Counted from the stretch's first letter, positions 8,413 through 57,517 are shown. The stretch is DNA of 64,000 nt from Nitrospirales bacterium (GCA_965223295.1 CBDCWC010000003.1:704001-768000), one strand, 5' to 3'. Numbers and translations: made by a program. Notes: a model not told the origin generated them from the letters alone.

Positions 8413-8603
8413 GGGTCTGTTGAAAAAAGCCGCCAGCGGCGTTCTCGCCCTTTTTCCGTGCTCACGTAAGACCAGTACGCTCCGCGCGTAAAAATGGCTA
8501 CGGCCTTGCTGAACGGACTTTTTTGAACAGACCTGAGGCCTCTGACATGTGACGTCGCAGAGACGAAATTTGGCCGTTGATATCATCATTATTCAACAGC
8601 CCC
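8413..8603 (+). mobile_element. Hairpin MITE-like element family A, copy 1 (core plus extension type I)
   Basis: GGGTCTGTTGAAAAAAGCCGCCAGC...TTTTGAACAGACC core, outer end TTCAACAGCCCC; flanked by ATAAT direct repeats. Confidence 0.9.
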
Positions 8604-8710
8604 ATAATCAGTCGTTACGGTACCAAACTTTCAGTCAGTTAGGGTAAAACACACCAAACTTTTTAATGTCGTCTGAAAGGAACAGTATCTGAGAACTCTA
8701 CGGAAGATTA

Positions 8711-9385
8711 TTACATGAGATGCTCGATCAGTTGATTGGCCAATTGATGCAATACCGGAAGATGCGTCTTGGCTTGAGTCTGAATCGTTTCGGAAGGAAT
8801 CCCTCCTCTATTGACATCATCTGGGCATTCCCGACAAAGCGCTTCAATGCCCGGTTCTTCAATTTCCGGGTGAAACAATAGCCCATAACCACGAGCAGGC
8901 AAGTGAAACGCTTGCACCGGAAAATCTTCAGAAGCCATTAAAGACTTGACATCGGGAGGAAGGATAATCCTTTCACCATGCCATTGAAACACTTCAAACT
9001 TATCAGCCAGTTGGCTAAACACAGGATCCCTTTTCCCAACATCCGTGACCGTGACTGGGACCATCCCAATTTCAAACGTTGGCCCAGGTGACACCGAACC
9101 ACCCAAAACCTTGGCTAATAATTGTGCACCGAAACAAATTCCAAGAATGGGGATGCCCTTGTTCATCGCCGCTTTCACAAATTGTTGTTCTTTTGCAATC
9201 CACGACTCCGGATCATTCACCGACATGGGTCCACCCATTATCAGCAAGAAATCACTCGATTCCTTCGGCGGCCCCTCTTCCGGCACCAGTCTTGTCTCAA
9301 CTATATAGCCCCGCTTTTCCAAAGCCTGACGAAAAGCACCGGGACCTTCAAATGGTACATGCTGCAGACAAGTGGCAATTTTCAT
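8711..9385 (-). CDS. Class I glutamine amidotransferase-like protein
   Basis: QHVPFEGPG, MGGPMSV, GICFGAQ nucleophile elbow, FHPE. Confidence 0.9.
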   Translation of the reverse strand: MKIATCLQHVPFEGPGAFRQALEKRGYIVETRLVPEEGPPKESSDFLLIMGGPMSVNDPESWIAKEQQFVKAAMNKGIPILGICFGAQLLAKVLGGSVSPGPTFEIGMVPVTVTDVGKRDPVFSQLADKFEVFQWHGERIILPPDVKSLMASEDFPVQAFHLPARGYGLLFHPEIEEPGIEALCRECPDDVNRGGIPSETIQTQAKTHLPVLHQLANQLIEHLM

Positions 9386-9532
9386 AAAATTGGCACCAAC
9401 AATGACACAGAAAGTTACAGAGGCACGGAGAATTGAAAAAGAGGAGAAGAGCGGGAGTAAGACTTAGAGAAAAGGGAGGTTACCTCAGTATAAAAATTAA
9501 CCGGTGCCTGACTACACTCGAATGCTTCAACA

Positions 9533-10204
9533 TTACGACAAACATCCGTTAGTGGCAAACCCGTTGGCAAACATTGATTGATGTCCACTTTTCTTATTCA
9601 CGCATTCGACGAGATGCCAAAATCGAAGAGGGTTCACCTTCTTTTTACTCGCGACGATGAGACTCGTTCCTTCCAAAACCGTATTAAGTGCTAAGTCAGT
9701 TCGAAATCCGATATGCTTACACATGGGAGAAATAAATTTCTCAACCGCAGCAATCACTTTATTTCCATTACTAAAGTGATTCAACATGATGATCCTGCCT
9801 CCTGGCTTGCACACCCGGATCATTTCATTCACCACTTTCCGATAATCTGGAACCGCAGTCACGACATAAGCCGCCATCACAATGTCAAAGGTATCATCAG
9901 GAAGCTGCATATTTCCCGCATCCATAGTTTGGAGCGTGACATGCGATAAATTGAATTCGTCTACCCTGCGATGGGCATGCTCCAACATGCCCTCAGAAAG
10001 ATCAATCCCCAAGACGTCGCAATGCGACGGATACAAGGGCAACGCTTCACCCGTGCCGACTCCCACTTCTAAAACTTGGCAACCTGGCTCAATTGGCAAT
10101 CCTCGTACAGCAGCCTCCCGTGATTGTTTAAAAGCTTTTCCAAACGTGTGATCGTAGACAGATGCATAGGCTGTATACACCCGTTCCACTTTCTTATTGT
10201 CCAT
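9533..10204 (-). CDS. Class I SAM-dependent methyltransferase, PmtA-like (phospholipid N-methyltransferase family)
   Basis: YA.VYD..FG, VLEVGVGTG, GIDLSEGML, RVCKPGG, LNHF. Confidence 0.8.
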   Translation of the reverse strand: MDNKKVERVYTAYASVYDHTFGKAFKQSREAAVRGLPIEPGCQVLEVGVGTGEALPLYPSHCDVLGIDLSEGMLEHAHRRVDEFNLSHVTLQTMDAGNMQLPDDTFDIVMAAYVVTAVPDYRKVVNEMIRVCKPGGRIIMLNHFSNGNKVIAAVEKFISPMCKHIGFRTDLALNTVLEGTSLIVASKKKVNPLRFWHLVECVNKKSGHQSMFANGFATNGCLS

Positions 10205-10373
10205 GCGTCCCCCCTAGTGGTGTCTTACTCATTCCACACCCCTTCGAAGACTTGTGAATTGATACCATGAAATTTGAAAATTCGCTGAAACAGGGGAAAT
10301 TGAACGATGGCGGGAACCCAGATTTTTATGCCGGCCTGGGGACGGCCCACCGACTCACAACCTAACGGATGTT

Positions 10374-10402
10374 AATCTACCGAAGTCGAGTGAGCGAGTC
10401 AA
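10374..10402 (-). promoter_or_regulatory. Sigma-70 promoter for the methyltransferase gene
   Basis: Minus strand TTGACT-N17-TAGATT. Confidence 0.6.
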
Positions 10403-10592
10403 CTCTTATTCTTCACAACTCACTGATTGTAGAAACCTTTCTGCCAAATGACCGATCATTTGCGTATCATAAAATACATGGTTCTGTTCACAACGTGAGC
10501 ACTACCTGGGATTGCAATGCTTCAGGGGCTGCTCTACAATTCTGTCCCTCTATTTATTTTCATACGTGCCATAGCTCCGAAGGAGAACGGAC

Positions 10593-11255
10593 ATGAACAT
10601 TGGCTTTTTATGTTTACGATTCCCATGCATAGTATTTGTACTCGCCGCCCTGGGCACAATGACACAACCTTCAGTGTCATCAGCCATTGATTTGGACATC
10701 AGCATGGAACAGGCAAATGAATCCCTCGCTGCCGGCCGGCAAACTATGGAAGCTGCCAATTCCGTTGAAGATGTGGCTGCAGTCATGAAAGCTTCGGAAA
10801 AAGCCAGCCGTGTCGGAGCCGATCCTGAAGTCGATCCTTGCGGAACCCATGCCATTTTACGTACACGACGATATTGGCTGGAATATTTTGGTCGGCGTGA
10901 AGCTGCCGAATCTAAACGCCAAAAAAAGGATATCCGTATGCCTGAGGCTAAAATTCAAGAAATCCTGGATATGCCCTATCTGGAAGTGGAGGTCAGATTG
11001 TGCGGGGAAGAAGAATTTTTTGCCGAGGGAGCCGAAATTGCACTCCAACAAGGCAATCTCACTGCCCGACCAGTAGATATAGGCCCTGCAGAACGGGGTC
11101 GAAAAAATCCGGGGCCTGCCCCTAGCTTTCGCTCCCGCTTTACAGCGAGATTTGCCTATGCCGACTTTGACCCACAGGCACCAGGCACGTTGGCCGTTTT
11201 TTTTCCAGACGGAAAACTGATTAATATTCCGGCAGACTTCTCAAAAATCCAGTAA
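10593..11255 (+). CDS. Secreted hypothetical protein
   Basis: 220-aa ORF with GAAGGAG SD and N-terminal signal peptide. Confidence 0.75.
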   Translation: MNIGFLCLRFPCIVFVLAALGTMTQPSVSSAIDLDISMEQANESLAAGRQTMEAANSVEDVAAVMKASEKASRVGADPEVDPCGTHAILRTRRYWLEYFGRREAAESKRQKKDIRMPEAKIQEILDMPYLEVEVRLCGEEEFFAEGAEIALQQGNLTARPVDIGPAERGRKNPGPAPSFRSRFTARFAYADFDPQAPGTLAVFFPDGKLINIPADFSKIQ

Positions 11256-11376
11256 GAGTCTGTTGAAAAAAGCCGCCAGCGGCGTTCTCGCCATTGTTCC
11301 GTGCTCACGTAAGACCAGTACGCTCCGCACGCAAAAATGGCTGCGGCCTTGCTGGACGACATTTTTGAACAGACCC
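11256..11376 (+). mobile_element. Family A element copy 2 (core only)
   Basis: GAGTCTGTTGAA...TTGAACAGACCC flanked by GTAA repeats; the left repeat includes the upstream gene's TAA stop. Confidence 0.9.
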
Positions 11377-11449
11377 GTAAAGGAGAAGTGAAAAGCAGAA
11401 GCACGAACAAAGTAGAACTTTCAACTCTTCCTATCTTACTTTTTCTTTT

Positions 11450-13189
11450 TCACTTCTCACTGATAATTCCTTCGACTTCACGCAGCGTATACAAATGATG
11501 GTACAGCCCACGTTGCTCTAAGAGTTCCTCATGCCGCCCTTCTTCAACAATTGTTCCTCGATGAAGCACAAGAATGCGATCCGCCCGTTGAATGGAAGAG
11601 AAACGATGCGCGATCATCAAAGTGGTCCGCCCTTTCATGAGCTCATCCAATGCACTCTGCACCAACGACTCTGATTGGCTATCCAATGCCGACGTCGCCT
11701 CATCAAGGATCAGAATTCTGGGATTTTTCAATAAGGCTCGTGCAATCGCAACTCGCTGCCGTTGTCCGCCTGATAGGTTTATACCCTTCTCCCCTAATAC
11801 AGTCTCGTACCCCGCCGGAAGGGTTTGAATAAACTCATGGGCATTGGCCCGCTCACTCGCTTCCCGCACCTCTTCTTCAGAAGCATCCCAACATCCGTAT
11901 CGAATATTTTCGTTAATAGTCCCGCCAAATAAATGCGTGTCTTGGGGAACAAGTGCTAATTGATGATACAAACTGTCTAATTCAATGGATTTAATATCAT
12001 GCCCATCAATAAAAACTTTTCCCATGGTCGGATCATAAAAACGGTGCAGCAGATTAATGATCGTCGTTTTTCCTGCGCCTGTGGGCCCAACCAACGCCAC
12101 ACATTCACCCGCTTCAATGGAAAACGAGACGCCCTCTAGTACAGGGCCCCGACCGTCATAGGCGAATTGTACGTCCTCGAACTGCACAGCACCCTGAATC
12201 GGATTCAATGCCTGAGCATCAGAAGCATCTTGTATATCCAATGGAGTATCCAGCAATTCAAATACACGCGTCATGGCACCTTGCACTTCTTTCACTTGCG
12301 TAAATATTCTGGCAGCTGACCCAAACGGACCAATAAGGATTCCCGCAAACAGCACAAAGGCAAACAATTCCCCAGGAGACAATTGCCCTTCAATGACTTG
12401 CTTCCCCCCATACCACAACACTCCAATGGCCATGGCAAAAGTAAAAAACGTAATGACCGGGACAAAGACAGCTAACACGCTAGTCCGCTGCATGGTGGTT
12501 GCTAAGAGGTTATCAACTGCTGAACGGAACCGTGATTCTTCTCTCTGCCCTTGCACAAATGACTTCACCTCCCGAATACCTGAGACCACTTCCTCGATAA
12601 GCGTCGTCACATGCGCGGTTTGATCTTGAATTTTCATTGACAATGATTTCAACCGTTTTCCAAACAGCCGGGCCACCAGCGCGAGCAACGGCAAGAGAAT
12701 CAGAATGAGCACGCACAAGCGCCAATTCATGACCAACAGAAATCCGACCCCTCCAATAATTGTCACCAGATGCTTCAGCGCATCTAAGGGAGTTTCGGTC
12801 AAGAGGTTTTGAATCACACCAACATCATTCATTAAACGGGAAATCAATTCCCCCGTTCGTCGTTTGGCAAAAAATTTCAGCGATAGCCGATGCAGATGCG
12901 AAAAGACATGCGTGCGAAAATCCGCCATCACCCGTTGGGAAGCCAGCGCGGTGAGATAGCTATGGCCCATGGACAACAGCCCCTGCCCCACGACTAACCC
13001 AATAAACACCCATACCATAGACGTTAACTGCTGAAGGTCTCGATGAACTGTGATCAAGTCCCATAAAAAACCTCCCAACTTAATCATTGCCAAATTGCAG
13101 GCAGCCACACCCATGACGGCTACGCCCGCGCAGACCATGATCATCATCTGAGGTCGAACAAAGGGCAAAAATCGAGACCACTGGTTCAT
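11450..13189 (-). CDS. ABC exporter, fused TMD-NBD (MsbA-like)
   Basis: TM helices, GPTGAGKT, LSGGQRQR, ILDEATS, IAHR; start assigned to ATG 13189. Confidence 0.92.
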   Translation of the reverse strand: MNQWSRFLPFVRPQMMIMVCAGVAVMGVAACNLAMIKLGGFLWDLITVHRDLQQLTSMVWVFIGLVVGQGLLSMGHSYLTALASQRVMADFRTHVFSHLHRLSLKFFAKRRTGELISRLMNDVGVIQNLLTETPLDALKHLVTIIGGVGFLLVMNWRLCVLILILLPLLALVARLFGKRLKSLSMKIQDQTAHVTTLIEEVVSGIREVKSFVQGQREESRFRSAVDNLLATTMQRTSVLAVFVPVITFFTFAMAIGVLWYGGKQVIEGQLSPGELFAFVLFAGILIGPFGSAARIFTQVKEVQGAMTRVFELLDTPLDIQDASDAQALNPIQGAVQFEDVQFAYDGRGPVLEGVSFSIEAGECVALVGPTGAGKTTIINLLHRFYDPTMGKVFIDGHDIKSIELDSLYHQLALVPQDTHLFGGTINENIRYGCWDASEEEVREASERANAHEFIQTLPAGYETVLGEKGINLSGGQRQRVAIARALLKNPRILILDEATSALDSQSESLVQSALDELMKGRTTLMIAHRFSSIQRADRILVLHRGTIVEEGRHEELLEQRGLYHHLYTLREVEGIISEK

Positions 13190-13290
13190 AGAAATCCCAT
13201 AGTGCAACAATGCCGTTAGAGAGGGGAAAAAGAATAGTTACACACAAACAAATGAAGAACTAAAAGCAGACAGGAACGAAGGATTGGGAG

Positions 13291-13512
13291 TCAATCGAGT
13301 TGAATAACTGATTCGATTTGCAATTTATTGATTGCGACAAACTCCGAATGGTGGGTGTCATCGATAAGGACATCGGTCAGATTAAGAAATCTGACCGATT
13401 CATCATTCAGTACATCCGAAATTCGATTCCGCATCGGGGGAATTAAGAGCTCACCAACATAGGTTGAAAGTGAGGAACGCACCTTTATGCGAACTTTCTT
13501 CCCTTGGGACAT
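13291..13512 (-). CDS. Small conserved hypothetical protein (DUF6812-like)
   Basis: RISDVLN...FLNLTDV...FVAINK pattern. Confidence 0.65.
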   Translation of the reverse strand: MSQGKKVRIKVRSSLSTYVGELLIPPMRNRISDVLNDESVRFLNLTDVLIDDTHHSEFVAINKLQIESVIQLD

Positions 13513-13546
13513 AGCAATATTCTTATCCCTGCCGACCTATAGAAGA

Positions 13547-13642
13547 TTAATTGCGCCGCTTCGCGAACTTCATGCGGCGGCGAAGTTTTTTATGTTTATG
13601 CTTGCGCATCTTCTTCCTCCGCTTTTTGACCACACTGGACAT
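13547..13642 (-). CDS. AURKAIP1/COX24-domain small basic protein (bS22/mS38-like), missed by ORF track
   Basis: Manual translation MSSVVKKRRKKMRKHKHKKLRRRMKFAKRRN*. Confidence 0.88.
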   Translation of the reverse strand: MSSVVKKRRKKMRKHKHKKLRRRMKFAKRRN

Positions 13643-13871
13643 AAGTAATAGATTCCTGGGTTAAAATAATGGTAGATGGCAAGGCAATAGGAACGTATTC
13701 AACTTTTGAATGCTTAGGGAAAAGGCCAATGAAACAGCTGGGTACCTATCATAGGGTAAAGAAATGTGTCAAGAAAACTCATGTATCATAGCTGGTCACA
13801 GACCCGAGAGTCATCTTCTCTTTAGAAATTTCCTTGACCCCTCCGGCACACCTTCTTCATGATAGGGCCTC

Positions 13872-14369
13872 ATGGGAAAGGAATCCGCTGTCATCACACG
13901 CTTTTGGGTCTGGGCAATCATGGCTACATTCGGAATGGTGTGTCTTGCAGGAACTGGATGTTCCAAAAAAGAGCCAAAATATCCAGAAGATCATGCCCGG
14001 TTTCAACGAGTGGTCCAGGCCATCAAATCACTTGAAACCGCTTATGTCAACAAAGATCAAACCGCATTCCACGAGCTTCTCTTGCCTCTTGAGCAGCTGG
14101 ACAACTTGGAAACCGAGGCAACGAGAGATTTTGCGGCCTTTGACACCATTCAGCTTGACGTGACGGTGGACCGCATTCTCATCGATGGAGATCGAATTTC
14201 GGCCTTCATATCCTGGCAAGGCCAATGGCAACGTACTGCGCAAGAATCAAACGACCAAGCCAGAGGCCATGGAGTGCTGCTGTGGAGCGGAGCTCAAGTC
14301 ATATTACTTCGCGGAATAGAAGGTGACCTGCCATTTGGCATGGCATCCCGCCTCAACATCGCCTCCTGA
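13872..14369 (+). CDS. Putative lipoprotein
   Basis: Lipobox-like LAGTGC followed by a soluble domain. Confidence 0.7.
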   Translation: MGKESAVITRFWVWAIMATFGMVCLAGTGCSKKEPKYPEDHARFQRVVQAIKSLETAYVNKDQTAFHELLLPLEQLDNLETEATRDFAAFDTIQLDVTVDRILIDGDRISAFISWQGQWQRTAQESNDQARGHGVLLWSGAQVILLRGIEGDLPFGMASRLNIAS

Positions 14370-14408
14370 TTTCCGCAAACCCCACTCTCATATCTCAACA
14401 TTCTTACG

Positions 14409-16058
14409 ATGGCTTCTTCCACTGCTAAAGTTCCAGGACATTCTCAAGTCCTTTCTACTGATTTCCTCATCATTGGCGCTGGGGTAGCTGGCCTGCGTGC
14501 AGCCTTGGAATTATGTCGACACGGAGAGGTTACCATGGTGGCGAAAGGCGGACCTCAAGATAACAACTCCTTCTATGCCCAAGGAGGCGTAGCGGTAGCC
14601 CTTAGTGAAGAGGATGACGTTGATCTCCACTTCACCGATACCCTCAAAGCCGGGCATCAACTATGTTCACGCCCGGCCACAAAAGTTTTGGTTGAGGAAG
14701 GTCCCGACCGGATCCAAGAACTCATTGACTGGGGCGCGAAATTCGACACGATTGATGGAAAATTGGCATTCACAAAAGAAGGCGCTCATAGCCGTCATCG
14801 CGTCTTGCGGGCAGGGGGGGATGCCACCGGAAGTGAGATGGTTCGGGCCTTGGGTGTGAAAGCTCAAGCCCTCAAGAATCTTAAATGGCTGGGCAACCAT
14901 TTTGGTGTCGAATTGATTATTCAGGACGGTCGTTGCTGCGGGGCTTTCGTACTAGATGAACTGAAGGGTATTCAGAAAACGATTCTGGCCTCAGCCGTCC
15001 TGCTGGTCACCGGCGGAGCAGGACAAGTCTACGCTCGGACCACCAATCCACCCAATGCCACCGGCGATGGCATTGCCATGGCCTACAGAGCCGGAGCAAT
15101 TTTAGAAGACATGGAGTTCGTTCAATTTCATCCGACTTCCTTATATTTGCCCTCAAGCCCCCCGTTTCTCCTGTCAGAAGCCCTCCGCGGTGAAGGAGCC
15201 ATTCTTCGAAATAACCGAACTGAACGGTTTATGACACACTATGATCGCAATCTAGAACTGGCCCCGCGAGATATCGTCTCGCGCGCCATTTGGACGGAAA
15301 TGCAACGCACCAAAGCCCGGCACGTCTATTTAGACGCCACACATCTCAAAGCATCCTTCTTAAAAGAGCGATTCCCTACCATCTATTCTACTTGCCTACG
15401 ATACGATATCGACATCACTGAAGAATGGATACCCGTGTCCCCCAGCGCCCATTATTTTATGGGTGGCGTCAAAACCGACCTTCATGGCGCCTCAAACATC
15501 CTCGGCCTCTATATCGCCGGCGAAGCCGCCTGTTCAGGTGTCCACGGCGCCAACCGCTTAGGCAGTAACTCTTTGTTAGAAGGATTGGTTTTCGGCTTGC
15601 GCGCCGCACGAGCAGCCTATCGTTATTCAGCAACCTGTTCGCCCCCGAATGTTGTTTCAGCATCTACCCGTAGAAGAACATCGAAGAAGAAGCTGACCGA
15701 ACAGGACATTGAAAAACTGAGAAATTCTCTACGGCGTTTGATGTGGACGAAAGTTGGGTTAATCAGAACGGAAGAATCGTTACACAAAGCCCTTGAACAA
15801 CTTCTACAATGGTCTCACAAACTGCGAGTGCCCCCGTTTAATCGAGCAGGCCTTGAAGCGCAGAACATGATTCAGGTGGGGCAATGTATTACCGAAGCCG
15901 CCCTGTGGCGTTCCAACAGCGTAGGCGCCCACTATCGGGAGGACATTCCACTGTTTAAAGGCTTGAATTGGAAAGTCCATAGCCAGAATCACATACCGGC
16001 CCCCACTCCATCGGGATCCTTTCCTTCGAGGAAAACCAAAAAGGTACGGCATCGCTGA
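14409..16058 (+). CDS. nadB: L-aspartate oxidase
   Basis: IIGAGVAGL, SFYAQGG, EGAHS, QFHPT, SEALRGEG, ELAPRD, AHYFMGG, GVHGANRLGSNSL. Confidence 0.95.
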   Translation: MASSTAKVPGHSQVLSTDFLIIGAGVAGLRAALELCRHGEVTMVAKGGPQDNNSFYAQGGVAVALSEEDDVDLHFTDTLKAGHQLCSRPATKVLVEEGPDRIQELIDWGAKFDTIDGKLAFTKEGAHSRHRVLRAGGDATGSEMVRALGVKAQALKNLKWLGNHFGVELIIQDGRCCGAFVLDELKGIQKTILASAVLLVTGGAGQVYARTTNPPNATGDGIAMAYRAGAILEDMEFVQFHPTSLYLPSSPPFLLSEALRGEGAILRNNRTERFMTHYDRNLELAPRDIVSRAIWTEMQRTKARHVYLDATHLKASFLKERFPTIYSTCLRYDIDITEEWIPVSPSAHYFMGGVKTDLHGASNILGLYIAGEAACSGVHGANRLGSNSLLEGLVFGLRAARAAYRYSATCSPPNVVSASTRRRTSKKKLTEQDIEKLRNSLRRLMWTKVGLIRTEESLHKALEQLLQWSHKLRVPPFNRAGLEAQNMIQVGQCITEAALWRSNSVGAHYREDIPLFKGLNWKVHSQNHIPAPTPSGSFPSRKTKKVRHR

Positions 16059-16064
16059 GAGCGA

Positions 16065-16949
16065 TCATCTCGCGGGCATCGTTAAACAGGGGCCTAAAAA
16101 TCGATTGAGATTCTGCTGAAAAACGTTGTACAGCTCTTTGGTGATGAAGCCTTGTTTCCCATGGCTTATTGGATGACTTCCAATTCTTGAGACAGCCATA
16201 ATTTCACTGCCCGTATTTGTGATAAAGCATTCATCGGCCTGTTGCAGTTCCTCTATCATGTATTTGCCTTCTTCCACTTTGACACCCTGCTTCCTTGCTA
16301 ACTCCATGACGACGTCTCGCGTTACACCCTTCAAAATGCCACATTTAACAGCCGGGGTATACAATCGTTGGGCCCTTACAAAGAAGATATTACTCGTCGT
16401 ACATTCCGCAACATAACCATCCAGATTTAACATCAAGGCATCATCCGCCCCCCCCTGATTCGCCTCCCGTTTCGCCAAAATATTATTCAGAAAACTGGTT
16501 GCTTTAATTTGAGGAGGCTGCGCTTTCTGAGAGTTTCGGCATACAGACGACACGTGCAAAGTCAAACCCTGGTCCCGCCGCTGCTCGGAGTACGTCTGAA
16601 CAGATTTCGCCATCACGACAAGAGTGGGGTGGGCACACAACTTCGGGTCAATCCCAAGTTCCCCTTGACCGCGAGAGACCGTCACCCGGAAACCCGCATT
16701 TTGCAGGTGATTGCGATCCAACAGTTCACGAAAAATTGGCAACCATTCGTCATCGTGTATGGGGAGATTCAGTCCAATAAGTTCACAAGATTGGTGAAGC
16801 CGTTCGAGATGACGTTCCCAAAGAAATAACTTGCCCTGATACACCCGCAATGTCTCATAGACACCGTCCCCATATAAAAAACCATGGTCTAACACAGAAA
16901 TCTTGGCATCCCGTTCTTGGATAACATCACCATTTAGATAAACCCACAT
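16065..16949 (-). CDS. Class IV PLP aminotransferase (aminodeoxychorismate lyase / branched-chain aminotransferase family)
   Basis: DHGFLYGDGVYET, HLERL, ECTTSNIF, ILKGVTR; directly downstream of the pabB-like gene. Confidence 0.88.
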   Translation of the reverse strand: MWVYLNGDVIQERDAKISVLDHGFLYGDGVYETLRVYQGKLFLWERHLERLHQSCELIGLNLPIHDDEWLPIFRELLDRNHLQNAGFRVTVSRGQGELGIDPKLCAHPTLVVMAKSVQTYSEQRRDQGLTLHVSSVCRNSQKAQPPQIKATSFLNNILAKREANQGGADDALMLNLDGYVAECTTSNIFFVRAQRLYTPAVKCGILKGVTRDVVMELARKQGVKVEEGKYMIEELQQADECFITNTGSEIMAVSRIGSHPISHGKQGFITKELYNVFQQNLNRFLGPCLTMPAR

Positions 16950-16957
16950 ATCTTGAC

Positions 16958-18638
16958 CTAGATTTCTCCCTCCGATTGAAGGACTTGAAAAAAGGCTTGG
17001 GCTTTATGCAATGTTTCCTCATACTCCCGAATGGGATCGGAATCTTCGACAATGCCCGCCCCAACTTGAAGATACCCATGCTCCTGTGTCAGTAGTAAGG
17101 TGCGAATCACAATATTGAGATCAAGATTTCCATTCCATCCGATGAATCCGATGGACCCTGTATACAATCCTCGCCGTACCGGCTCTAAACGTTCGATGAG
17201 TTCCATGCAATGAACTTTCGGTACACCCGTAATCGTCCCTCCCGGAAACACCGCCCGAATGACATCAAAAGCATTGCGATCTTCCCTCAACTGCCCAAGC
17301 ACGTGCGAGACTAAATGCATGACATGTGAGTAGCGTTCGACTGTCATAAACTCATCGACTCGAATAGACCCATACCGACAGACCCGGCCCAAATCATTAC
17401 GCGCCAAGTCTACGAGCATGAGATGTTCTGCCCGTTCTTTGGAGCTTGAAAGCAACTCTTCCACTAAGCGTCGATCCTGAGCCATTCCCTCGCCACGCGG
17501 CCGGGTCCCTGCAATGGGACGCATATCAGCATAACCACCTTCCAGCCGGACCAAACGTTCCGGCGAATTGCAGACAATGACATCCGATTCAAGGACAAGG
17601 AATGCTGAATGAGGAGAAGGATTGACCCGTCGCAATTGATGATATAGAGCGGCTCCAGCCTGAGCCGGCGATGGAAAATTCCGATGCATACCTTCAACCT
17701 GAAATCGTTGAGAAACATTGGCTTGATAGATGTCTCCTGCAGCGATGAATTCTTGGCATTCCTTCACCCGGCGCTGATATTCCGATGCCACTTGCCCTTG
17801 ATGAATGTCGAGAGAAAATTGACCAGGCTTGATTTCTGCAACAGAATGATCCATGGACCGCAACTTGATCTCAAGATCAGACAATCGTGCGTCCCCTTCC
17901 CGTGCCAATTGCTCGCAATCTTCACTGGCCACCCGTTCTGGAGAAGGCGAATACACAAGCCAGACCGTTCCGTCATGATGATCAACCACCACAAACGTTT
18001 CCACAAAGAAAAAATACAGATCCGGAAACTGAAGATCATCGACAGTATATTCGGGAAGTGCTTCAAACGTTCTGGCTAAATCATAACTCAAATATCCAAT
18101 TGCCCCCCCGATGAACGGCAAAAAAGACGGGGCAACTGACACAATCGGCTCGGTAAAAGTTCGTTCCAACAACGCAAACGGTTCCCCTTTATGTTCTTCC
18201 CACCTCCCTGCTACATAGGATTGCACCGAACGTCTCTTGCCTCGCATAACACGGTCAGGTTCACCGCCTAGATAGGAGTAACGTCGAGAAACACCTTGTT
18301 GAAACCAATTATGTTCGAGAAAAAACGAGTGGGGAGCATAGTTGGTAACTGCAATATACAACTCGAAAGGATCGTGAAAATCTATGGAACATTGCCGCAC
18401 GAGAGGAAAGATACTGGGACTGTTAGGTATTTCACTTCGATAGCCCATAGAGCCTCGTATTGAGATCAAACTCATGAAACAGGGGGGAAAGTTCAAAAAA
18501 GTTCGTCCAGCAAGGCCCCAGCCATTTTGATGCGCGGAACGTACTGCTAATACGTGAGCACAGCAAAATGGCGAGAACGCCGCTGGCGGATTTTTTCAAC
18601 ATTCCCATACTTGAAGAAAGAGGGGTTGGATCTGTCAT
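16958..18638 (-). CDS. pabB: Chorismate-binding enzyme (aminodeoxychorismate synthase component I / TrpE-like), 5' end interrupted by family A element
   Basis: GDIYQAN, SPER, PIAGTRPRG, KERAEHLMLVDLARND, FPGGTITGVPK, RGLYTG. Removing the element plus one TSD restores in-frame MTDPTPLSSSIFPLVRQ. Confidence 0.82.
18416..18606 (-). mobile_element. Family A element copy 3 (core plus extension type II) inside pabB
   Basis: ATACT direct repeats at 18411-18415 and 18607-18611. Confidence 0.92.
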
Positions 18639-18672
18639 CCCCGGCCGATGAGTGGGAAGAAAGGTCAAGAAA

Positions 18673-19272
18673 CTAAGGATTTTCCTGTGGGTCAGCAGGA
18701 GGAGGGGCCGTCGTTCTCATAGCATTCGCGGCTTCTTCCGGCGCTAGGATCCCTTTTTGGACAAGAGATTCTAACAGACCTTTCACAGCTTCTTCCGGCG
18801 AACGACGGAGTCCACGAACCCGAATACTGGGGGGGAAAAAACGCAGATAATCAGGATTATTGACACGAATGGTGACCGCTTCACTTTCACTGAACGGACC
18901 AAGATCTTGATCAGTATGAGGAATTCGGAAAAACGGTTTCCCATTCGCCAACAGGCCATCAGGGCCGATAATCTCTAGCCGGTCTGAAATATCCTCACCG
19001 GAGATTTCTTTCACGGTATCCACCACCAAAATCAAGGAGTCAGCAACAAGCGGATCACCTGTTTGATTTTTGACCCTCACAATAAATTCCACTTCACTCA
19101 CAGAGGTTAAGCCGGTTCCAGACAGGGCATCAGGATCTTTATATTGAACAACGGGAACCACCCCCTCCGTGACATCGGGGAGTTCATCAACCGAAGGATT
19201 CGCCAAAGCCAGGCTTCCAGTCGCAAAAAGAGTCGACATGACAGCACCCAGCAGTTTTACGTTGAACATCAT
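18673..19272 (-). CDS. Secreted hypothetical protein
   Basis: Signal peptide MMFNVKLLG...ALA; 199 aa. Confidence 0.7.
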   Translation of the reverse strand: MMFNVKLLGAVMSTLFATGSLALANPSVDELPDVTEGVVPVVQYKDPDALSGTGLTSVSEVEFIVRVKNQTGDPLVADSLILVVDTVKEISGEDISDRLEIIGPDGLLANGKPFFRIPHTDQDLGPFSESEAVTIRVNNPDYLRFFPPSIRVRGLRRSPEEAVKGLLESLVQKGILAPEEAANAMRTTAPPPADPQENP

Positions 19273-19462
19273 CCCACGATTAGAGAGAAAGTGAAAAAAG
19301 AGCACTCTCATAACTTGAAAAATCTTCGATTGACTAAAGAGACGAAAACGATAACATATTGTATCATATTTAATGAACGGTAGGCCGCTTTTGGCTTGAC
19401 AAGATTTCCGATATTTGGTTGAATGAGAGCCCTTCCAACAACTCGTCTTGCCGGTCTACAAC

Positions 19463-19681
19463 ATGGCATCTTCTCAGGATCCACTGTTTTCGGGACTTGG
19501 AAAGGCAATGCGAGTGGGGACGGACCTACTCGCCGCCCTGATCGTCGGTGGATTCCTCGGATGGTTAGTTGATTCATATGTGTTGGAGACGACACCGTGG
19601 GGTATGACGGTTGGGTTGGTGCTGGGATTAATCGCTGGAATACGTAATGCCTACCGGGCCGCTCAACGTTGGGGAACATAG
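19463..19681 (+). CDS. atpI: AtpZ/AtpI family protein
   Basis: Two TM helices, GWLVD..LET.PWG pattern, first gene of the Fo cluster. Confidence 0.8.
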   Translation: MASSQDPLFSGLGKAMRVGTDLLAALIVGGFLGWLVDSYVLETTPWGMTVGLVLGLIAGIRNAYRAAQRWGT

Positions 19682-19711
19682 TCTCACGATTTCACACAAT
19701 TAGGTTCAGCA

Positions 19712-20437
19712 TTGGAAGATCCATTACATCCCTTCGAGCTACATAACTTCATCCCGCTTTCCCTATTCGGTCTAGACATTTCGATTAACAAGGCCGTGTT
19801 GTTAATGTGGATTGTGGTGGGCGTCGCGTCGTTCCTGCTCTTAAAGGCTGGGGCAGCTAAATCGCTTGTCCCATCCAAACTTCAGAGCATGGCGGAATTG
19901 CTAGTGGAGTTTATTCGAGGCATCATTCAGGGTACGATGGGTCCATTGGGCATGCGCTATTTCCCACTTATCAGCGCATTGTTTCTGTTCATTTTATTTT
20001 GCAATCTTCTTGGACTAATACCCGGATCATATACTGTCACCAGCCAAATTATTGTCACAGGCGTCTTTGCCGTGATTGTGTACGGCCTGAGCCTTGTCAT
20101 CGGATTTCAATTACATGGCTCCAAGTTTTTAGGTATATTAGTTCCTCCTGGCACACCAGGATGGCTCCTGCCTTTAATGATTCCGATTGAATTGATTAGT
20201 CAGTTAGCTAGACCAATCTCTTTAGCTGTGCGATTATTTGCAAATATGACAGCAGGGCATGTCATTCTGGGTGTCTTATTTGGGTTAACGATTGCGGGCG
20301 GACTGCTCATTGGATGGCTTCCTTTTTCTTTCACCATTGTCTTATATGGTCTAGAGGTCGGTATCGCATTCATTCAAGCCTATATATTTACGGTCTTAAC
20401 GTGCGTTTATATGGGTGATGCTATTCATTTGCACTAA
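19712..20437 (+). CDS. atpB: F0F1 ATP synthase subunit a
   Basis: PISLAVRLFANMTAGH, IQAYIF. Confidence 0.96.
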   Translation: MEDPLHPFELHNFIPLSLFGLDISINKAVLLMWIVVGVASFLLLKAGAAKSLVPSKLQSMAELLVEFIRGIIQGTMGPLGMRYFPLISALFLFILFCNLLGLIPGSYTVTSQIIVTGVFAVIVYGLSLVIGFQLHGSKFLGILVPPGTPGWLLPLMIPIELISQLARPISLAVRLFANMTAGHVILGVLFGLTIAGGLLIGWLPFSFTIVLYGLEVGIAFIQAYIFTVLTCVYMGDAIHLH

Positions 20438-20504
20438 TCACGTTCAAACCATGAAAGTCAGTCATTACTATTAGTCCCTTTTAAACTGGGAGGACCATAT
20501 TACA

Positions 20505-20732
20505 ATGGATTCTGCAGCAGCAGCACTTTTGGGAATGGGCCTAGCGGCCGCAGGTTTTGCAGGTGCCGGCATCGGCATTGGGTATATTTTCGGGAAAATG
20601 ATCGAAGCCGTCGCACGGCAGCCCGAGGCAGAAGGCCGAGTCGGGAAGTATATGTGGATCGGTTTCGCGCTGGTTGAAGCCATCGCACTTTACGGTCTGG
20701 TCATTGCCTTTATCATCATGGGCAAAGGATAA
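20505..20732 (+). CDS. atpE: F0F1 ATP synthase subunit c
   Basis: GAGIGIG, ARQP, VEAIALY; GGAGG SD. Confidence 0.96.
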   Translation: MDSAAAALLGMGLAAAGFAGAGIGIGYIFGKMIEAVARQPEAEGRVGKYMWIGFALVEAIALYGLVIAFIIMGKG

Positions 20733-20746
20733 GGGGCGAGTGTGCC

Positions 20747-21253
20747 ATGCCACAATTTGACTCACATTTCTTTTCGTCTCTGATTTTTTGGGAACTGATT
20801 TCGTTTGGCATTCTGCTCTGGGTACTCTACAAGTATGCTCTCCCTCCCATTCTCGAAACACTTGAAACCAGAGAGAGAAAAATTCGAGAGAGCTTAGACC
20901 AAGCCGAGCAGAGCCGAGCCACGGCTGAGCAGAAGCTGAAGGAATACGAAACGAAGCTCCAGGCAGCGGCCAAAGAAACGGAAACACTCATGACCGAAGC
21001 CAAACAAAAAGCGCAGCAGCTCCTGGATGAGAACCAGCAACGACTCCGTGCCGAGACCGATCGAATGAAAGAAGAAGCCGCCCAAGATATTGAGCGAGAA
21101 CGACGGAAAGCCGTGCAGGATATCAAAGACCAAACGGCTGATCTTGCAATTTTGGTCGCAGAAAAAGTCATTGGCCGCAGCTTGTCAGATGATGACAATC
21201 GTCGGTTTGCTCAAGAAGCCTTAGCTGAAGTCGCGGCCCATTCTAAAAATTGA
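20747..21253 (+). CDS. atpF: F0F1 ATP synthase subunit b
   Basis: MPQFD, N-terminal TM helix, coiled coil, AEKVI. Confidence 0.93.
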   Translation: MPQFDSHFFSSLIFWELISFGILLWVLYKYALPPILETLETRERKIRESLDQAEQSRATAEQKLKEYETKLQAAAKETETLMTEAKQKAQQLLDENQQRLRAETDRMKEEAAQDIERERRKAVQDIKDQTADLAILVAEKVIGRSLSDDDNRRFAQEALAEVAAHSKN

Positions 21254-21329
21254 TCTTGGTCAGCAACAATCTATTGCAGACTAGATTCTCAGTTTTAGGA
21301 ATTCAGAAAACTACTTCACAAAACATTCC

Positions 21330-21360
21330 AAAGAGGGAAGGACAACTTCCCTCTTTTTTT
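21330..21360 (+). terminator. Intrinsic terminator of the atp Fo operon
   Basis: AAAGAGGGAAG-loop-CTTCCCTCTTTTTTT. Confidence 0.8.
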
Positions 21361-23261: not shown

Positions 23262-23336
23262 TTTCAATCAATTACTCAGAATGTATCTCCACAACATGGC
23301 CTGATCATACCATCTCTTTGGAACTCTGCCACTCAA

Positions 23337-42392: not shown

Positions 42393-42448
42393 GAACATCT
42401 AGCTCGTCCTATACACCTTTTCAAAAACATCACTCTTACCCGTTGTTG

Positions 42449-43960
42449 CTATAACCCAACTAAATTTCTAAGCGGCGACAAGACCGGATGGAAACGAATG
42501 ACATCGAATACCGTTGGTCTAAGATCTCGTGGATTGTCGTGCGTTCCTGTCTTAATGTAGCCAACTTTTCCTTGCATATCTACCACAAACATATGAGTCA
42601 TAAAATCGACACGAATTGAAGTAATTTCAAATCGCTCAAGATCGTCGACAGACAAAAACATCGGGGCCCGAAATGTGACCTCGGGAAAATCTGAAAGATT
42701 CCGATAGCGAACAACCCCTTGGAAATTGGGATGACTCTTTCGTTCACCAGTCTTAGGATCTTGCCAAGACACATCCAACGACTCTACTGGTAAGGTCGTC
42801 GTGGAAAATGTAAATTTTTCCGTACGTGTACTCGGATTAATCACCATGCTAAAGGTGGTATCGTTTCCTTCTATTGTCATTGTTCCAGAATGTCCATCGA
42901 ACAGAGCCTGATATGTCAGTTCTTGATTCTGCGTAAACGGCAAATTGGAAACCTCTTGCAACAAAAGACCTTCTTCCACCATTTCTACATTACCTAAGCC
43001 TGACAAGACCACTCGCTGTTTTTCTTGTTCGGCCCTCATTGTCAGCGTCATAGCCTCATCACTAGATGTTTCAAGCATGACGGTGGTTGGTTTGGCAAGC
43101 AGAATCGCATCTAACTTTCCAACAGACGGTTCACTTTTATTGATGGACTCGAGTGTGACCATGGCGTTCATTCCAGACTTCACCGCCCCAAATTTCCAGG
43201 CTCGCCCCTGGCTTTGCAATTCTATCCAAGCCTTGGGCGGATACACATCGGCTTCCCAATCCAACTCGTCAGGATTAGCCACAAGCAATTGATTGGGGCT
43301 CATTACCACATGTCCCACCTGTTGCAGAGAAAGCTTGTGAAACATCAATGGATCCGTCAATCGTTTCTGATCAGACCCGGGATTGATAAACGCTTCAAAG
43401 CGGCCCGTCTGCACTTGAATATTCACATCTGCATCGATGTGCCAGAATGAACTGACGAGTAACAACATGACGAAAACAATGGCCACAAGGACTTTTATGC
43501 CAATGACCGAGGCAATTTTCCCGATCCACGATGCTTTGGTCACCGCCTCTACTGGTAACGCGAGAGGCTTTCCTTCTAACTTTGCCTTGATGACGGAAAG
43601 AAGAATAGAAAATTCCTTGGATTCCGCTGTCCCCTTCCAGTCCAAAAACCGCAAAGCTTGGATCCCCGTAAAAGCCAAGGGAATCGCATTCGCTTCCAAC
43701 ATGACTGGGACAATCTTCTCTCCTTTTAAGGCCGCCCGAGCTTCTGCTCGAACCCATCTGGATCGCTTGGATTGCGTAGTCCATAAGACCACTACACATT
43801 TGGCCCCTGTGAGCGCCTCTTCAATGGTCTTATCCCATTCACTCCCAACCTGAATATCTCGATCCCACCACACAGAAAGACCCGAGGCTTCCAGGCCATG
43901 CGCCACTTGCTGAGCAATGGCCCGATCTTCACTTGAATAACTTATGAAGATGTCCTTCAT
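42449..43960 (-). CDS. TIR-domain single-pass membrane protein with large extracytoplasmic domain
   Basis: DIFISYSSED, GLSVWWD, VVVLWT..S..SRWVRAE (TIR_2); TM helix VLVAIVFVMLLLV; about 330-aa beta-rich C-terminal region. Confidence 0.88.
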   Translation of the reverse strand: MKDIFISYSSEDRAIAQQVAHGLEASGLSVWWDRDIQVGSEWDKTIEEALTGAKCVVVLWTTQSKRSRWVRAEARAALKGEKIVPVMLEANAIPLAFTGIQALRFLDWKGTAESKEFSILLSVIKAKLEGKPLALPVEAVTKASWIGKIASVIGIKVLVAIVFVMLLLVSSFWHIDADVNIQVQTGRFEAFINPGSDQKRLTDPLMFHKLSLQQVGHVVMSPNQLLVANPDELDWEADVYPPKAWIELQSQGRAWKFGAVKSGMNAMVTLESINKSEPSVGKLDAILLAKPTTVMLETSSDEAMTLTMRAEQEKQRVVLSGLGNVEMVEEGLLLQEVSNLPFTQNQELTYQALFDGHSGTMTIEGNDTTFSMVINPSTRTEKFTFSTTTLPVESLDVSWQDPKTGERKSHPNFQGVVRYRNLSDFPEVTFRAPMFLSVDDLERFEITSIRVDFMTHMFVVDMQGKVGYIKTGTHDNPRDLRPTVFDVIRFHPVLSPLRNLVGL

Positions 43961-47427: not shown

Positions 47428-47451
47428 TACACAAGATCCTCCTACCCTTGT

Positions 47452-47640
47452 TGGATTGTTGAATAATGAAGATATCAAAAGCCCTATTTCGCCAGGAAGC
47501 CTTGTCCATCAACAGTGTGGGTCTGTTCAAAAAAGTCCGTCCAGCAAGGCCGCAGCCATTTTTGCGCGCAGAGCGTACTGGCACTACGTGAGCACGGAAA
47601 AATGGCGAGAACGCCGCTGGCGGCTTTTTTCAACAGACCC
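47452..47640 (-). mobile_element. Family A element copy 7 (extension type I) in the last codons of the ABC ATPase gene
   Basis: CTTGT direct repeats at 47447-47451 and 47641-47645. Confidence 0.92.
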
Positions 47641-48370
47641 CTTGTTGAATTTGTCCTATCCGCCCATCTTCCATATGCACAATCCGATCACCAAATTCAA
47701 AAATCCGAGAATCATGTGTGACAATGATGACAGCGCGATCAGGATGCTTGCCCACGGCACATAACTCTTCCACAATCCGATGCCCAGTCTCCCCATCCAA
47801 ACTCGCCGTGGGTTCATCACAGAGAAGCAATTGCGGTTCTGCAACCAGCGCACGGGCAATGGCCACCCGCTGCTGTTCCCCACCCGACAACTTTGTGGGC
47901 AAGGCCGTTAAACGTTCGCCCATTCCCAACGTCTTCAACACCTCCTCAGCACGATCTTTAGCATCTGATTTTGCAACTCCCTGAACAAAAAGCGGAACCG
48001 CAGCATTTTCCACAGCCGTCAGCGTGGGCAGTAAATTATATTGCTGAAAGATAAAGCCCAAATGATCCCGGCGAAAATTGGTTTTCTCCGACGCTGATAA
48101 CTCGTGAATCGACTCTCCCAGCACCCGCACATCACCATCATCAGTTTCTAAAATTCCGGCAATTACGGACAGCAATGTGGTTTTTCCACTTCCAGATGGA
48201 CCGACCAGTAACAACACTTCCCCGCTTGCCACATCTAGATCCACTCCCTTCAGCACAGGAATTTTCGTGTCTCCTTCACCAAAGGATTTCGTGATACCTC
48301 GTGCGCGAACCAACCAATCTGACAAATCCTGCTCCAAGGATTCCACACTGTGAGACACTCCGTTATCCAC
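47630..48370 (-). CDS. ABC transporter ATP-binding protein (DevA/LolD/MacB-like)
   Basis: GPSGSGKT, LSGGEQQR, CDEPT, VTHD. Confidence 0.93.
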   Translation of the reverse strand: MDNGVSHSVESLEQDLSDWLVRARGITKSFGEGDTKIPVLKGVDLDVASGEVLLLVGPSGSGKTTLLSVIAGILETDDGDVRVLGESIHELSASEKTNFRRDHLGFIFQQYNLLPTLTAVENAAVPLFVQGVAKSDAKDRAEEVLKTLGMGERLTALPTKLSGGEQQRVAIARALVAEPQLLLCDEPTASLDGETGHRIVEELCAVGKHPDRAVIIVTHDSRIFEFGDRIVHMEDGRIGQIQQGVC

Positions 48371-56029: not shown

Positions 56030-56124
56030 GGGCACCTCTAAAAACTGAAGTTTTTTCTGAGGGCAAGGAAGCGGCGCGCGGCTGACGCCGCCATCGGGAA
56101 AAAGAACAGTTTTTAGAGGTGCCC
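56030..56124. mobile_element. Family B element copy B2 (internally deleted)
   Basis: GGGCACCTCTAAAAACT...AGTTTTTAGAGGTGCCC perfect TIR; ATAT direct repeats on both sides. Confidence 0.85.
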
Positions 56125-56154
56125 ATATGTCAAAAAAACTTCTAGAATCGCCTT

Positions 56155-56439
56155 CTACTTCTTTCGAAACGAAATATGCTCTTTATACTCTTCAATCGCT
56201 GCCCCTAAGGACTTCGCCCCTAACGGAATATTAGCTTCTAAGGCATCTTCGACTTCCGGATCATCGATCAACACTTCATAACACTCGTGCTGATTAGTCA
56301 GCACCATGCCCTTCTCAACTTGCCGGGGCATATAAATCTCCGTCCATACTTCTTTCTCCACTAAGCACACATCCCGAAACCGTTCATACAACAGCGCTTT
56401 ACGTTCTTCATCAGAAATAATTAGCGGGTTATTTTCCAT
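56155..56439 (-). CDS. Small acidic hypothetical protein
   Basis: SD GAAGGAG..GAGG before ATG 56439; 94 aa. Confidence 0.7.
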   Translation of the reverse strand: MENNPLIISDEERKALLYERFRDVCLVEKEVWTEIYMPRQVEKGMVLTNQHECYEVLIDDPEVEDALEANIPLGAKSLGAAIEEYKEHISFRKK

Positions 56440-56586
56440 ATCCTCTGCTCCTTCATTGATGTCGCAAAAATACAAAGGGACCGCGTCTCATCATTTTTTC
56501 ACATTGCCAAACGATCATTCAAACGATGAGTTCTCAACTCCTACCATTTTAGTGTTGATCAAAATTTCAATTCTGCAAACCAAGCA

Positions 56587-57021
56587 CTACTCTAATGGAT
56601 TCTTCACCGTCAGGCCTTTAAACTTTCGAAAGTCGGTATCGTTGCTATAAAGAACGTTCACCGCATATTGATGCAGCAATGCCACCAAATGAGCATCCGG
56701 CACCAAATTGCCCCGCACAGGAATCCCTTGAGTCACCTCCTCGTAGCAGGACAGAAATCCCTCCCCTTCCGAAAGCGTTCGCACCTGGGCGAGGCTCAAA
56801 AACATGTTGAGATTGCTCAAAGCTTTAGTCGGTGACAAAGGATAGGTGAAAATTCGAGGATGTGTCGCGATGCGACGATAGGACATCAGTGTGGAACACG
56901 TCACATAACATAATTCCGAGTCCGTGGCACATTTCTGCAAAAATGCTCCTACCATATCATGAAAAGGACTGGAACAATCGGAGGCCTAGAGAAACAGATT
57001 CACATCGAGGGAATAACTCAC
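56587..57021 (-). pseudogene. vapC: VapC PIN-domain toxin with premature TAG at codon 12
   Basis: GTG start overlaps the antitoxin TGA; VSYSLDVNLFL*ASD...PFH...RIATHP...GNLVPDAHL...LYSND.DF. Confidence 0.85.
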
Positions 57022-57263
57022 GGTAACGGCTCATCTAACACCGCATAGACCGCATCTTTATCCGCAAGATCGACTCGAGCCTGCATGGGTCGAGAAACCC
57101 AAGTCCAAGTCAAATCAGGATCGGGTTGGGGCCGTTTCCGTTGTACCAGGGCTTCTGCCAATAATTGAGAGACAAGCTGTCCCAGCGAACGATGTTCCTG
57201 TTTTTGAAGGTTTTTAAGTTCCTCAAGGATAGGCGTATCAATATCAAGAGTTGCTCTAGCCAT
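57018..57263 (-). CDS. vapB: VapB-type ribbon-helix-helix antitoxin
   Basis: MARATLDID..ILEELK......RSLG.LVS.LL..AL; coupled to the PIN gene. Confidence 0.82.
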   Translation of the reverse strand: MARATLDIDTPILEELKNLQKQEHRSLGQLVSQLLAEALVQRKRPQPDPDLTWTWVSRPMQARVDLADKDAVYAVLDEPLP

Positions 57264-57336
57264 GATGCGTTGATGCTAAAATAGCATACATCAGATGTCA
57301 ATTTTATGTGTCGGCCGTCCCTATTCTTTCCCATAG

Positions 57337-57517
57337 GGATCTGTTGAAAAAAGCCGCCAGCGGCGTTCTCGCCATTTTTCCGTGCTCACGTAGTACCAGG
57401 ACGCTCCGCGCGCAAAAACGGCTGCGGCCTTGCTGGACCGATTTTTTGAACAGCTCCGAGGCTTTCGGCTTCCTAAAGAATATATGGCCTTTAATATCTT
57501 CATTATTCAACACTTCC
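57337..57517 (+). mobile_element. Family A element copy 8 (extension type I, shorter)
   Basis: Flanks CATAG/TATAG (one mismatch). Confidence 0.88.

Follow-up and report, generated by a model that had tools for sequence, protein, structure and literature searches.

What are the eight hairpin-forming repeats scattered over a 64,000-nucleotide stretch of DNA from a Nitrospirales bacterium (GCA_965223295.1 CBDCWC010000003.1:704001-768000), by which route do they move, and why do they keep a fold? The whole of this stretch, hereafter the window, was analyzed, and all positions are counted from its first nucleotide. An initial annotation had described the repeats as a mobile element with co-varying ends, exchangeable tails and target-site duplications (TSDs) of variable length, and had suggested mobilization through a folded single-stranded DNA or RNA intermediate. 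The repeats prove to be eight copies of a non-autonomous transposon of about 190 bp with terminal inverted repeats (TIRs), that is, a miniature inverted-repeat transposable element (MITE), of a family that is spread through the Nitrospirales. The reading that accounts best for the evidence as a whole, to which we assign a probability of roughly 0.6, is that these copies belong to a new MITE family, that a DDE-type transposase mobilizes them in trans, and that their hairpin is under selection, probably as RNA.

Exactly eight copies were recovered, at the positions first reported, both by a repeat search and by a covariance model built from seven window cores (copy 4 excluded) and four cores of other genomes. 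The repeat search split the copies into five and three, corresponding to the two orientations of one element, and the 13 matches of the covariance model in the window comprised the eight copies and five weak opposite-strand echoes of the same palindromes. From this density, eight in 64 kb, the initial annotation extrapolated to hundreds of copies per genome. Whole elements measure 181–225 bp and their cores 121–156 nt; seven of the eight copies carry a tail of 60–69 nt, outer end repeat included, and copy 2 consists of a core of 121 bp only. Read core-first, an element is laid out as a 5-bp flank, the left end GGGnnTGTTGAA, an imperfect palindrome of 122 nt, a tail of about 57 nt, the outer end and the same 5-bp flank. 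The last 12 nt of the palindrome are an inverted repeat of the end of the element, of which the outermost end is a third copy. Open reading frames (ORFs) overlapping the copies gave no Pfam match, and the elements are without coding capacity. With a size below about 300 bp, no coding capacity, TIRs, a TSD of fixed length and many copies dispersed within and between genomes, the element has the features of a MITE. Several automatically predicted ORFs start or end inside copies (window positions 8465, 18496, 47478 and 57308), so automatic annotation near the repeats is likely to be off by some codons.

The distribution of the family was surveyed with a 20-nt core pattern run on a collection of species-representative genomes, which matched at least 108 stretches, nearly all in Nitrospirales assemblies. 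Among the 108 listed matches, 14 were chance matches within genes of unrelated bacteria; the remainder came from at least about 45 assemblies labelled Nitrospira, Nitrospiraceae, Nitrospirales or Nitrospirota, and single carrier contigs were binned as Nitrospinota and as Ignavibacteria. As judged by blastn of the window against the loci, none of the pattern loci derived from the window's own genome, and window proteins were 64–80% identical to genes on the Nitrospirales loci. Ten chance loci were excluded from the model search; in the window and the other 98 loci the covariance model gave 126 matches, corresponding to at least 116 non-overlapping copies, and these copy and assembly counts are lower bounds. 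Family 1, with GGG-type ends as in the window, accounts for 83 of the 116 copies; family 2, with ends such as CAGGATGCTGAAAA, accounts for 25, found in Nitrospira-lineage genomes, and the other eight are truncated or intermediate between the families. The ends of both families align in register, and both have the layout of core, inner repeat, tail of about 60 nt and outer end. No Rfam 15 family reached its gathering score in the window (0 matches); the best sub-threshold hits of a permissive search scored 15.7 and 18.3 bits where 55 and 52 were required. A tRNA-like element was considered and dropped; ARAGORN found no tRNA or tmRNA in the window. The family was not found described in the openly accessible literature on Nitrospira MITEs and repetitive extragenic palindromes, PMC12306157 included.

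The main argument for the mode of movement comes from the ends and their flanks. Full copies of family 1 are bounded by TIRs of 16 nt, GGGnnTGTTGAA(A/T)A(A/T), and the outer ends of 69 family-1 tails share a conserved stretch of 16 nt, GGGnnTGTTGAATA(A/T)T, with only positions 4–5 free. Ends unlike fixed TIRs had been a premise of the initial annotation; apart from these two positions, the outer ends are ordinary TIRs. Flanks could be evaluated for 70 of the 83 family-1 copies, 13 having no recognizable outer end or running off their contig (copy 3 is among the 13, its diverged outer end having been missed by the script, though its ATACT repeat is exact). An exact 5-bp repeat was found in 45 of the 70, a 4/5 match in 9, a 6-bp repeat in 4, including copy 4, and a match of 3/5 or less in 12, a figure that includes copy 5 and a spurious assignment for copy 2. 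Control positions 15 nt further out gave 0/69 exact 5-bp matches, and the duplicated pentamers are 78% A+T. Duplications first described as varying between 4 and 6 bp follow a 5-bp rule, the other lengths being mostly noise around it. In family 2, 22 of 27 copies are preceded by TA(G/A/C), and the duplications are YTAR-like and of 4 bp (CTAG, TTAG, CTAA, TTAA, CTAC), exact in six and matching at three of four positions in four of the 14 copies whose outer end was found. A short duplication of fixed length next to TIRs is what a DDE-type transposase leaves behind when it makes staggered cuts in its target. Because the family combines TIRs with a fixed 5-bp duplication at AT-rich sites, its movement by a DDE-type transposase acting in trans is judged highly probable from its anatomy. 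Such an enzyme, encoded elsewhere in the genome, would bind both outer ends and cut the target with a 5-bp stagger; candidates would be sought in families reported to make 4–5 bp duplications.

Within the window, the flanking repeats listed in the initial annotation were all recovered, four of them as exact pentamers. Copy 1 (8413–8603, plus strand) has its core at 8413–8534 and its tail and outer TIR at 8535–8603, between ATAAT repeats at 8408–8412 and 8604–8608. Copy 3 (18416–18606, minus strand; core 18485–18606, tail with diverged outer TIR 18416–18484) lies between ATACT repeats, read on the plus strand, at 18411–18415 and 18607–18611. Copy 6 (38638–38827, plus strand; core 38638–38758, class B tail 38759–38827) is flanked by TGTAA at 38633–38637 and 38828–38832, and copy 7 (47452–47640, minus strand; core 47519–47640, tail 47452–47518) by CTTGT, again on the plus strand, at 47447–47451 and 47641–47645. 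For copy 8 (57337–57517, plus strand; core 57337–57457, short tail 57458–57517) the flanks are CATAG at 57332–57336 and TATAG at 57518–57522, a 4/5 match. Copy 4 (23337–23561, plus strand) has a core at 23337–23492, which includes a 34-nt insertion, and a tail at 23493–23561, and is flanked by the 6-nt repeat ACTCAA at 23331–23336 and 23562–23567. Copy 5 (25792–25979, minus strand; core 25859–25979, class C tail 25792–25858) has no flanking direct repeat. Copy 2 (11256–11376, plus strand), from which the tail is absent, is abutted by a 4-nt direct repeat, GTAA, at 11252–11255 and 11377–11380, and of the copies examined no other core-only one has a flanking repeat.

Two kinds of variant were observed alongside these copies. 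The 34-nt GC-rich insertion of copy 4 (23439–23472) occupies a fixed point of the core and recurs in a copy at locus L105 (972–1127), and a second type of mini-insert, about 25 nt long and containing a TTCG loop, is found in other genomes at two fixed places of the core, sometimes at both, giving cores of 147–170 nt. Copy 2 is adjoined by a perfect 12-nt inverted repeat (11383–11394 and 11447–11458), and a similar motif abuts a truncated core at locus L017; this could be another small element that removed the tail of copy 2. A third repeat family at this place was considered and dropped: the 12-nt motif gave four matches against 0.49 expected, and the structure was only a single local inverted repeat.

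The trace of an insertion is readable at copy 7, which lies with its flanks (47447–47645) inside a minus-strand operon encoding an FtsX-like permease, an ABC ATPase, an HlyD-like protein and an outer-membrane factor, between the ABC-ATPase gene and the next gene of the operon. The ABC-ATPase ORF upstream now stops inside the left end of the element (...QQGVC*). When the element and one copy of the pentamer are removed on paper, it reads ...QQG*; after this stop come AGGAGG and the ATG with which the next gene begins.

The second question is why the core is palindromic. As the initial annotation had it, the core of 121–122 nt folds as one long hairpin, although the fold is strong in copies 1 and 7 (z −5 to −7) and weak in copies 6 and 8; DNA z-scores of four copies were −5.0, −3.8, −1.0 and −2.2, and RNA z-scores of cores ranged from −1.2 to −7.4 on either strand. 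In a model alignment of 112 rows, which was fitted to the structure and in which the model ended about 12 rows with a 3′ insertion at the wrong place, 90.8% of the cells are standard pairs. Both sides have changed at 24 of 36 pairs, in 301 cells. The covariation score was 0.203, against 0.063 in shuffles of these related sequences (0/500 reached it) and 0.02–0.06 when partners were slid by 1–3 columns. Compensated pairs make up 8/12 of the outer stem, 6/6 of the long inner stem and 4/4 of the apical stem; three core blocks, CCGCCAGCGGCGTTCTCGCC, GTGCTCACGTA and GCTGCGGCCTTGCTGGAC, are nearly invariant, and their helices are without substitutions for this test. Compensation extends across subfamilies and across both sister families, family 2 keeping the same fold. 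At the ends, 13 distinct 9-nt haplotypes are perfectly complementary, six in family 1 and seven in family 2, and the family-1 outer stem of 9 nt is perfect in 26 of 80 copies and has one mismatch in 44 of 80. The co-variation of left end and inner right repeat noted at the outset thus extends, with the inner stems, well beyond what eight copies could reveal; in the window it holds for copies 1, 2, 6 and 7 and, with one mismatch, for copy 4, but copies 3, 5 and 8 are only partly complementary (in copy 5, positions 4–5 of the left end do not match the inner repeat). It is likely that selection acts on the hairpin in a folded single strand, but the fold would then characterize the element without being the means by which it moves.

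Which strand folds was approached through the mismatches that are tolerated. Of the 112 rows, 29 were removed because their ends were atypical or wrongly set, which left 83, of which 81 were distinct. On the core-first strand, paired positions showed 90 A.C or C.A mismatches against 22 G.T or T.G, and 22 pair positions leaned towards A.C against 4 towards G.T (sign test, p = 5e-4). Family 2 alone gave 40 of the A.C type against 8 of the G.T type. In well-conserved columns of family 1, G>A changes related to C>T as 53:20 at paired positions and as 11:21 at unpaired ones (Fisher p = 4e-4). An A.C on one strand is a G.T or G.U on the other, so the tolerated changes are wobbles on the tail-to-core strand, accepted there about four times more often than the reverse. 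These counts, which rest on a limited number of independent substitutions, are suggestive of folding of the tail-to-core strand in vivo.

A tail-to-core transcript offers one way in which this strand could fold. TTGAAT, part of the outer TIR, is present in 56 of 69 tails, and after a spacer of 18 nt it is followed by a CAAATT- or CATATT-like hexamer (CAWATT) in which A2 and T6 of a −10 element are present in 52% of tails; this spacing is the best A2/T6 position in the tail outside the AT-rich end. An RNA started from this weak promoter-like signal would run from tail to core, and its rod-like hairpin might serve the element, for example by regulating its transposase, or might affect neighbouring transcripts. 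That the fold acts as RNA is a tentative proposal, which we rate somewhat below even odds. A fuller version is bolder and correspondingly less likely: the element would in effect be a mobile gene for a structured RNA, with a tail promoter whose −35 lies in the outer TIR, a rod-like tail-to-core RNA of about 150 nt with stems kept by selection, and three invariant blocks read by a protein; the RNA, or the same DNA strand, would be needed to regulate the transposase or as a cofactor of movement, and the inner end copy would be a decoy that pairs with the left end. The same architecture is present in two sister families with different target duplications.

Among the alternatives, the one that survives best, though we consider it unlikely, is that the hairpin is used by the host, as in REP, ERIC or Correia repeats, serving as a bidirectional terminator, a processing site or a stabilizer in read-through mRNAs, with A6 and T6 runs flanking a GC-rich stem. 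An A-run and a T-run do lie, invariant, on either side of the GC-rich closing stem; 113 of the 116 copies are outside long ORFs, in intergenic DNA, and copy 7 lies within an operon transcript. One family-2 copy is also kept just upstream of the same gene in three genomes (loci L023, 613–737; L073, 2710–2835; L027, 2550–2680) whose surrounding DNA is 78–83% identical, so this insertion is old and has been retained. However, in tandem contexts copies show no bias in orientation relative to neighbouring genes (21 versus 20), and yet one strand of the element is favoured, which is hard to reconcile with read-through from either side and points to something internal to the element. A strong terminator at copy 7 would, moreover, split the operon, and a generic terminator scan of positions 8000–27000 found only a weak small hairpin in two of the five copies scanned.

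A second alternative dispenses with folding altogether: the core would be two long inverted ends of an ancestral element, whose arms agree through descent from master copies, co-evolution of ends and transposase, or gene conversion. The arms are about 70% alike over some 50 nt, related sequences can beat shuffle controls without any structure, and most of the co-variation is subfamily structure, since end types are linked to tail classes. In the largest A-type tail cluster (29 copies) the left end is TCT in 23; a second A-type cluster (12 copies) has left ends GCT, TCT or GCG; the B clusters have AAT in 11/11 and 4/4, and the D cluster AGT in 4/4. In the window, copies 1, 4, 7 and 8 carry A-type tails with TCT-like ends and copies 3 and 6 B-type tails with AAT, the tail of copy 5 being a singleton. 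Tail class thus tracks end class, which indicates descent of the copies from few subfamilies: the tails, first taken for swappable modules, are by sequence diverged homologues carried by subfamilies. Seven tails of 60–70 bp, in distinct classes and ending in a third repeat, had been correctly described, but they are not wholly unrelated, having in common their length, the 16-nt end and weak motifs (an AAATT island and CCAG). The length between repeats is mostly 55–57 nt, and 62–64 nt in the AGT group; a fixed length could reflect a required spacing of two transposase binding sites at the right end, or a promoter. The possibility raised at the outset, that a few subfamilies each matching the TIR of a known autonomous insertion sequence (IS) would explain the co-variation, fits in so far as the co-variation is organized in subfamilies, but an autonomous IS with matching ends was not found.

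Descent and conversion nonetheless account poorly for several features, and we regard an explanation without folding as quite improbable. At positions 4–5 none of the 70 copies has the same bases in the left end and the outer end, whereas in 63 of them the left end agrees with the inner repeat (permutation mean 19.9, maximum 31). In the AAT subfamily these positions vary at the outer end (CC, GC, TC, AC, CG) and stay AA in the left and inner repeats; the transposase therefore seems indifferent to them, and the agreement of left end and inner repeat calls for some other explanation. Three versions of the inner stem, unrelated in sequence, all keep pairing. Conversion between arms should erase mismatches and bulges, yet a G.G mismatch beside the A-run/T-run is conserved in both families (G in 108/112 rows on one side and in 104/105 on the other). 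This mismatch arises from a position at which the two true ends have G and the inner copy invariably has C, so that the inner repeat is systematically unlike a true end; it is not normally used as an end, since the duplications flank the outer one. A model confined to the duplex also predicts no asymmetry of A.C versus G.T restricted to paired columns.

The least likely alternative is the initial proposal of movement via folded single-stranded DNA or RNA, with the hairpin as movement signal for a structure-specific enzyme (a HUH/Y1-type enzyme, recombinase or reverse transcriptase): the compensatory stems, a mismatch tolerance that singles out one strand, a conserved G.G mismatch and bulges resembling the extrahelical signals of folded recombination sites, and the failure to find a DDE partner among window ORFs and related loci would suit it, but 16-nt TIRs with a 5-bp duplication of varied AT-rich targets denote DDE-type staggered double-strand cuts, the duplications flank an outer right end that stays out of the hairpin, no HUH, reverse-transcriptase or recombinase gene is present in the window, and to our knowledge the IS200/IS605, IS91, IS110 and REP/RAYT systems have neither such duplications nor TIRs.

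Several observations weigh against the reading of a trans-mobilized MITE with a selected, probably RNA-borne hairpin. A search of the window and of about 735 kb of related loci brought to light neither an autonomous element nor a transposase whose ends match. The 60 non-overlapping window ORFs of at least 70 aa contain no transposase, integrase, HUH or reverse-transcriptase Pfam domain, in keeping with the initial statement that the window holds no intact transposase. Pairs of ends 300–7000 bp apart with identical 5-bp flanks gave one match, two adjacent MITE copies, and solitary ends of either family outside known copies were only truncated or variant copies. Four ORFs of 180–700 aa flanked by inverted repeats were ordinary genes or without Pfam match, none being a transposase, and the whole element had no match among PLSDB plasmids. 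Copy 5 is without a TSD, as are, in recognizable form, 12 of the 70 family-1 copies. The sole pair of related loci compared for an empty site proved to be a rearrangement rather than a clean presence or absence: between loci L025 (1100–1960) and L050 (1840–2900), from two related Nitrospiraceae genomes, colinearity is lost exactly at a family-2 outer end, with different genes beyond, which suggests rearrangement between copies. As to the fold, shared descent of the copies makes shuffle controls overstate significance; most A.C counts may stem from perhaps 6–8 subfamily-defining substitutions; both strands fold about equally well in silico, energies not separating them, and in other genomes the optional insertion has its TTCG loop on the core-first strand, which would favour the opposite choice. 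As a promoter-like sequence the tail signal is weak: 4/6 with A2 and T6 is reached by only 22% of tails, and a generic promoter and terminator scan of positions 8000–27000 flagged no promoter in the elements.

Two further features of the window lie apart from this family. A second, unrelated small TIR element of 96 bp, with perfect 18-nt TIRs and ATAT flanks, occupies 56031–56126, and a longer copy with a degenerate left end lies at 203–346; the ends of this element recall those of Tn21-type transposons. In addition, a protein with a TIR_2 (Toll/interleukin-receptor) domain (42449..43960) adjoins two trypsin-like proteins, one of which carries a fused FGE-sulfatase domain; together (39325–43960) they may form a defence-type gene cluster.

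Nitrospirales are the main nitrite oxidizers of soils, oceans and wastewater plants, and their genomes are mostly known as metagenome-assembled genomes. A repeat of this size and density, restricted to one phylum, breaks assemblies: several loci end inside a copy. Copies also mark rearrangement breakpoints and can be located within operons. With a consensus on record, annotation would improve and spurious ORF calls across elements would stop. With more than 100 copies, two sister families and 13 compensated end haplotypes, the family is also a clean natural data set in which one can ask why some MITEs preserve a fold, and on which strand.

How does this element relate to known systems? An integron attC site is a folded imperfect palindrome found in cassette arrays beside an integrase and makes no target duplication; this identity was rejected, the copies being single, between unrelated genes and flanked by duplications, and the window having no integrase. 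A Tn3-derived TIME would fit the 5-bp duplication, and TIMEs have AT-rich 5-bp duplications and ends starting with a run of G, but Tn3-family ends are about 38 nt long and nearly identical at both termini, whereas left and outer right ends agree here over only 16 nt. Short TIRs and small fixed duplications are shared with IS4-related and IS5-type MITEs, and the outer end may resemble the terminal repeat of IS903. IS5-group elements duplicate 4 bp of a YTAR target, which the 4-bp YTAR-like duplications of the sister family in other Nitrospira genomes recall; an IS5-group origin was rejected for the window family, which duplicates 5 bp. In PMC2266710, the IS701, ISH3 and IS1634 families are given duplications of 4, 4–5 and 5–6 bp, respectively, and an end consensus starting with C or CRGT, which the GGG ends of the Nitrospirales element do not fit. 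With REP/BIME-RAYT and IS200/IS605 derivatives the element shares dispersed intergenic hairpins whose structure is relevant on one strand; unlike them it has TIRs and 5-bp target duplications, and an IS200/IS605 or REP/RAYT type was rejected on these grounds, the window also containing no Y1/HUH gene.

The closest parallels are ERIC and Correia repeats. ERIC (IRU) of enterobacteria is an imperfect palindrome of about 125 nt, intergenic, non-coding and present in many species, with insertion variants at fixed internal sites, and is thought to act as a folded RNA within transcripts. The Nitrospirales element likewise has a palindromic, intergenic and non-coding core of similar size with inserts at fixed sites, but differs in its one-sided 57-nt tail, its outer right end, a clear 5-bp duplication and a 4-bp sister family, as well as in sequence and host phylum. 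Correia (NEMIS) of Neisseria is a MITE of 100–155 bp with hundreds of copies, TIRs of about 26 nt and a duplicated TA, which gives rise to hairpin transcripts and has promoter-like sequences within its ends; it is not known to contain an internal decoy of either end or a conserved core with several stems. Like Correia, the Nitrospirales element is a small MITE with TIRs and promoter-like sequence in its ends; unlike Correia, it combines a 5-bp TSD and 16-nt TIRs with a decoy inner end and a conserved multi-stem core. This kind of element is already known from ERIC, Correia and similar repeats; new are the family itself and the evidence that its fold is selected, specific to one strand and combined with a decoy inner end.

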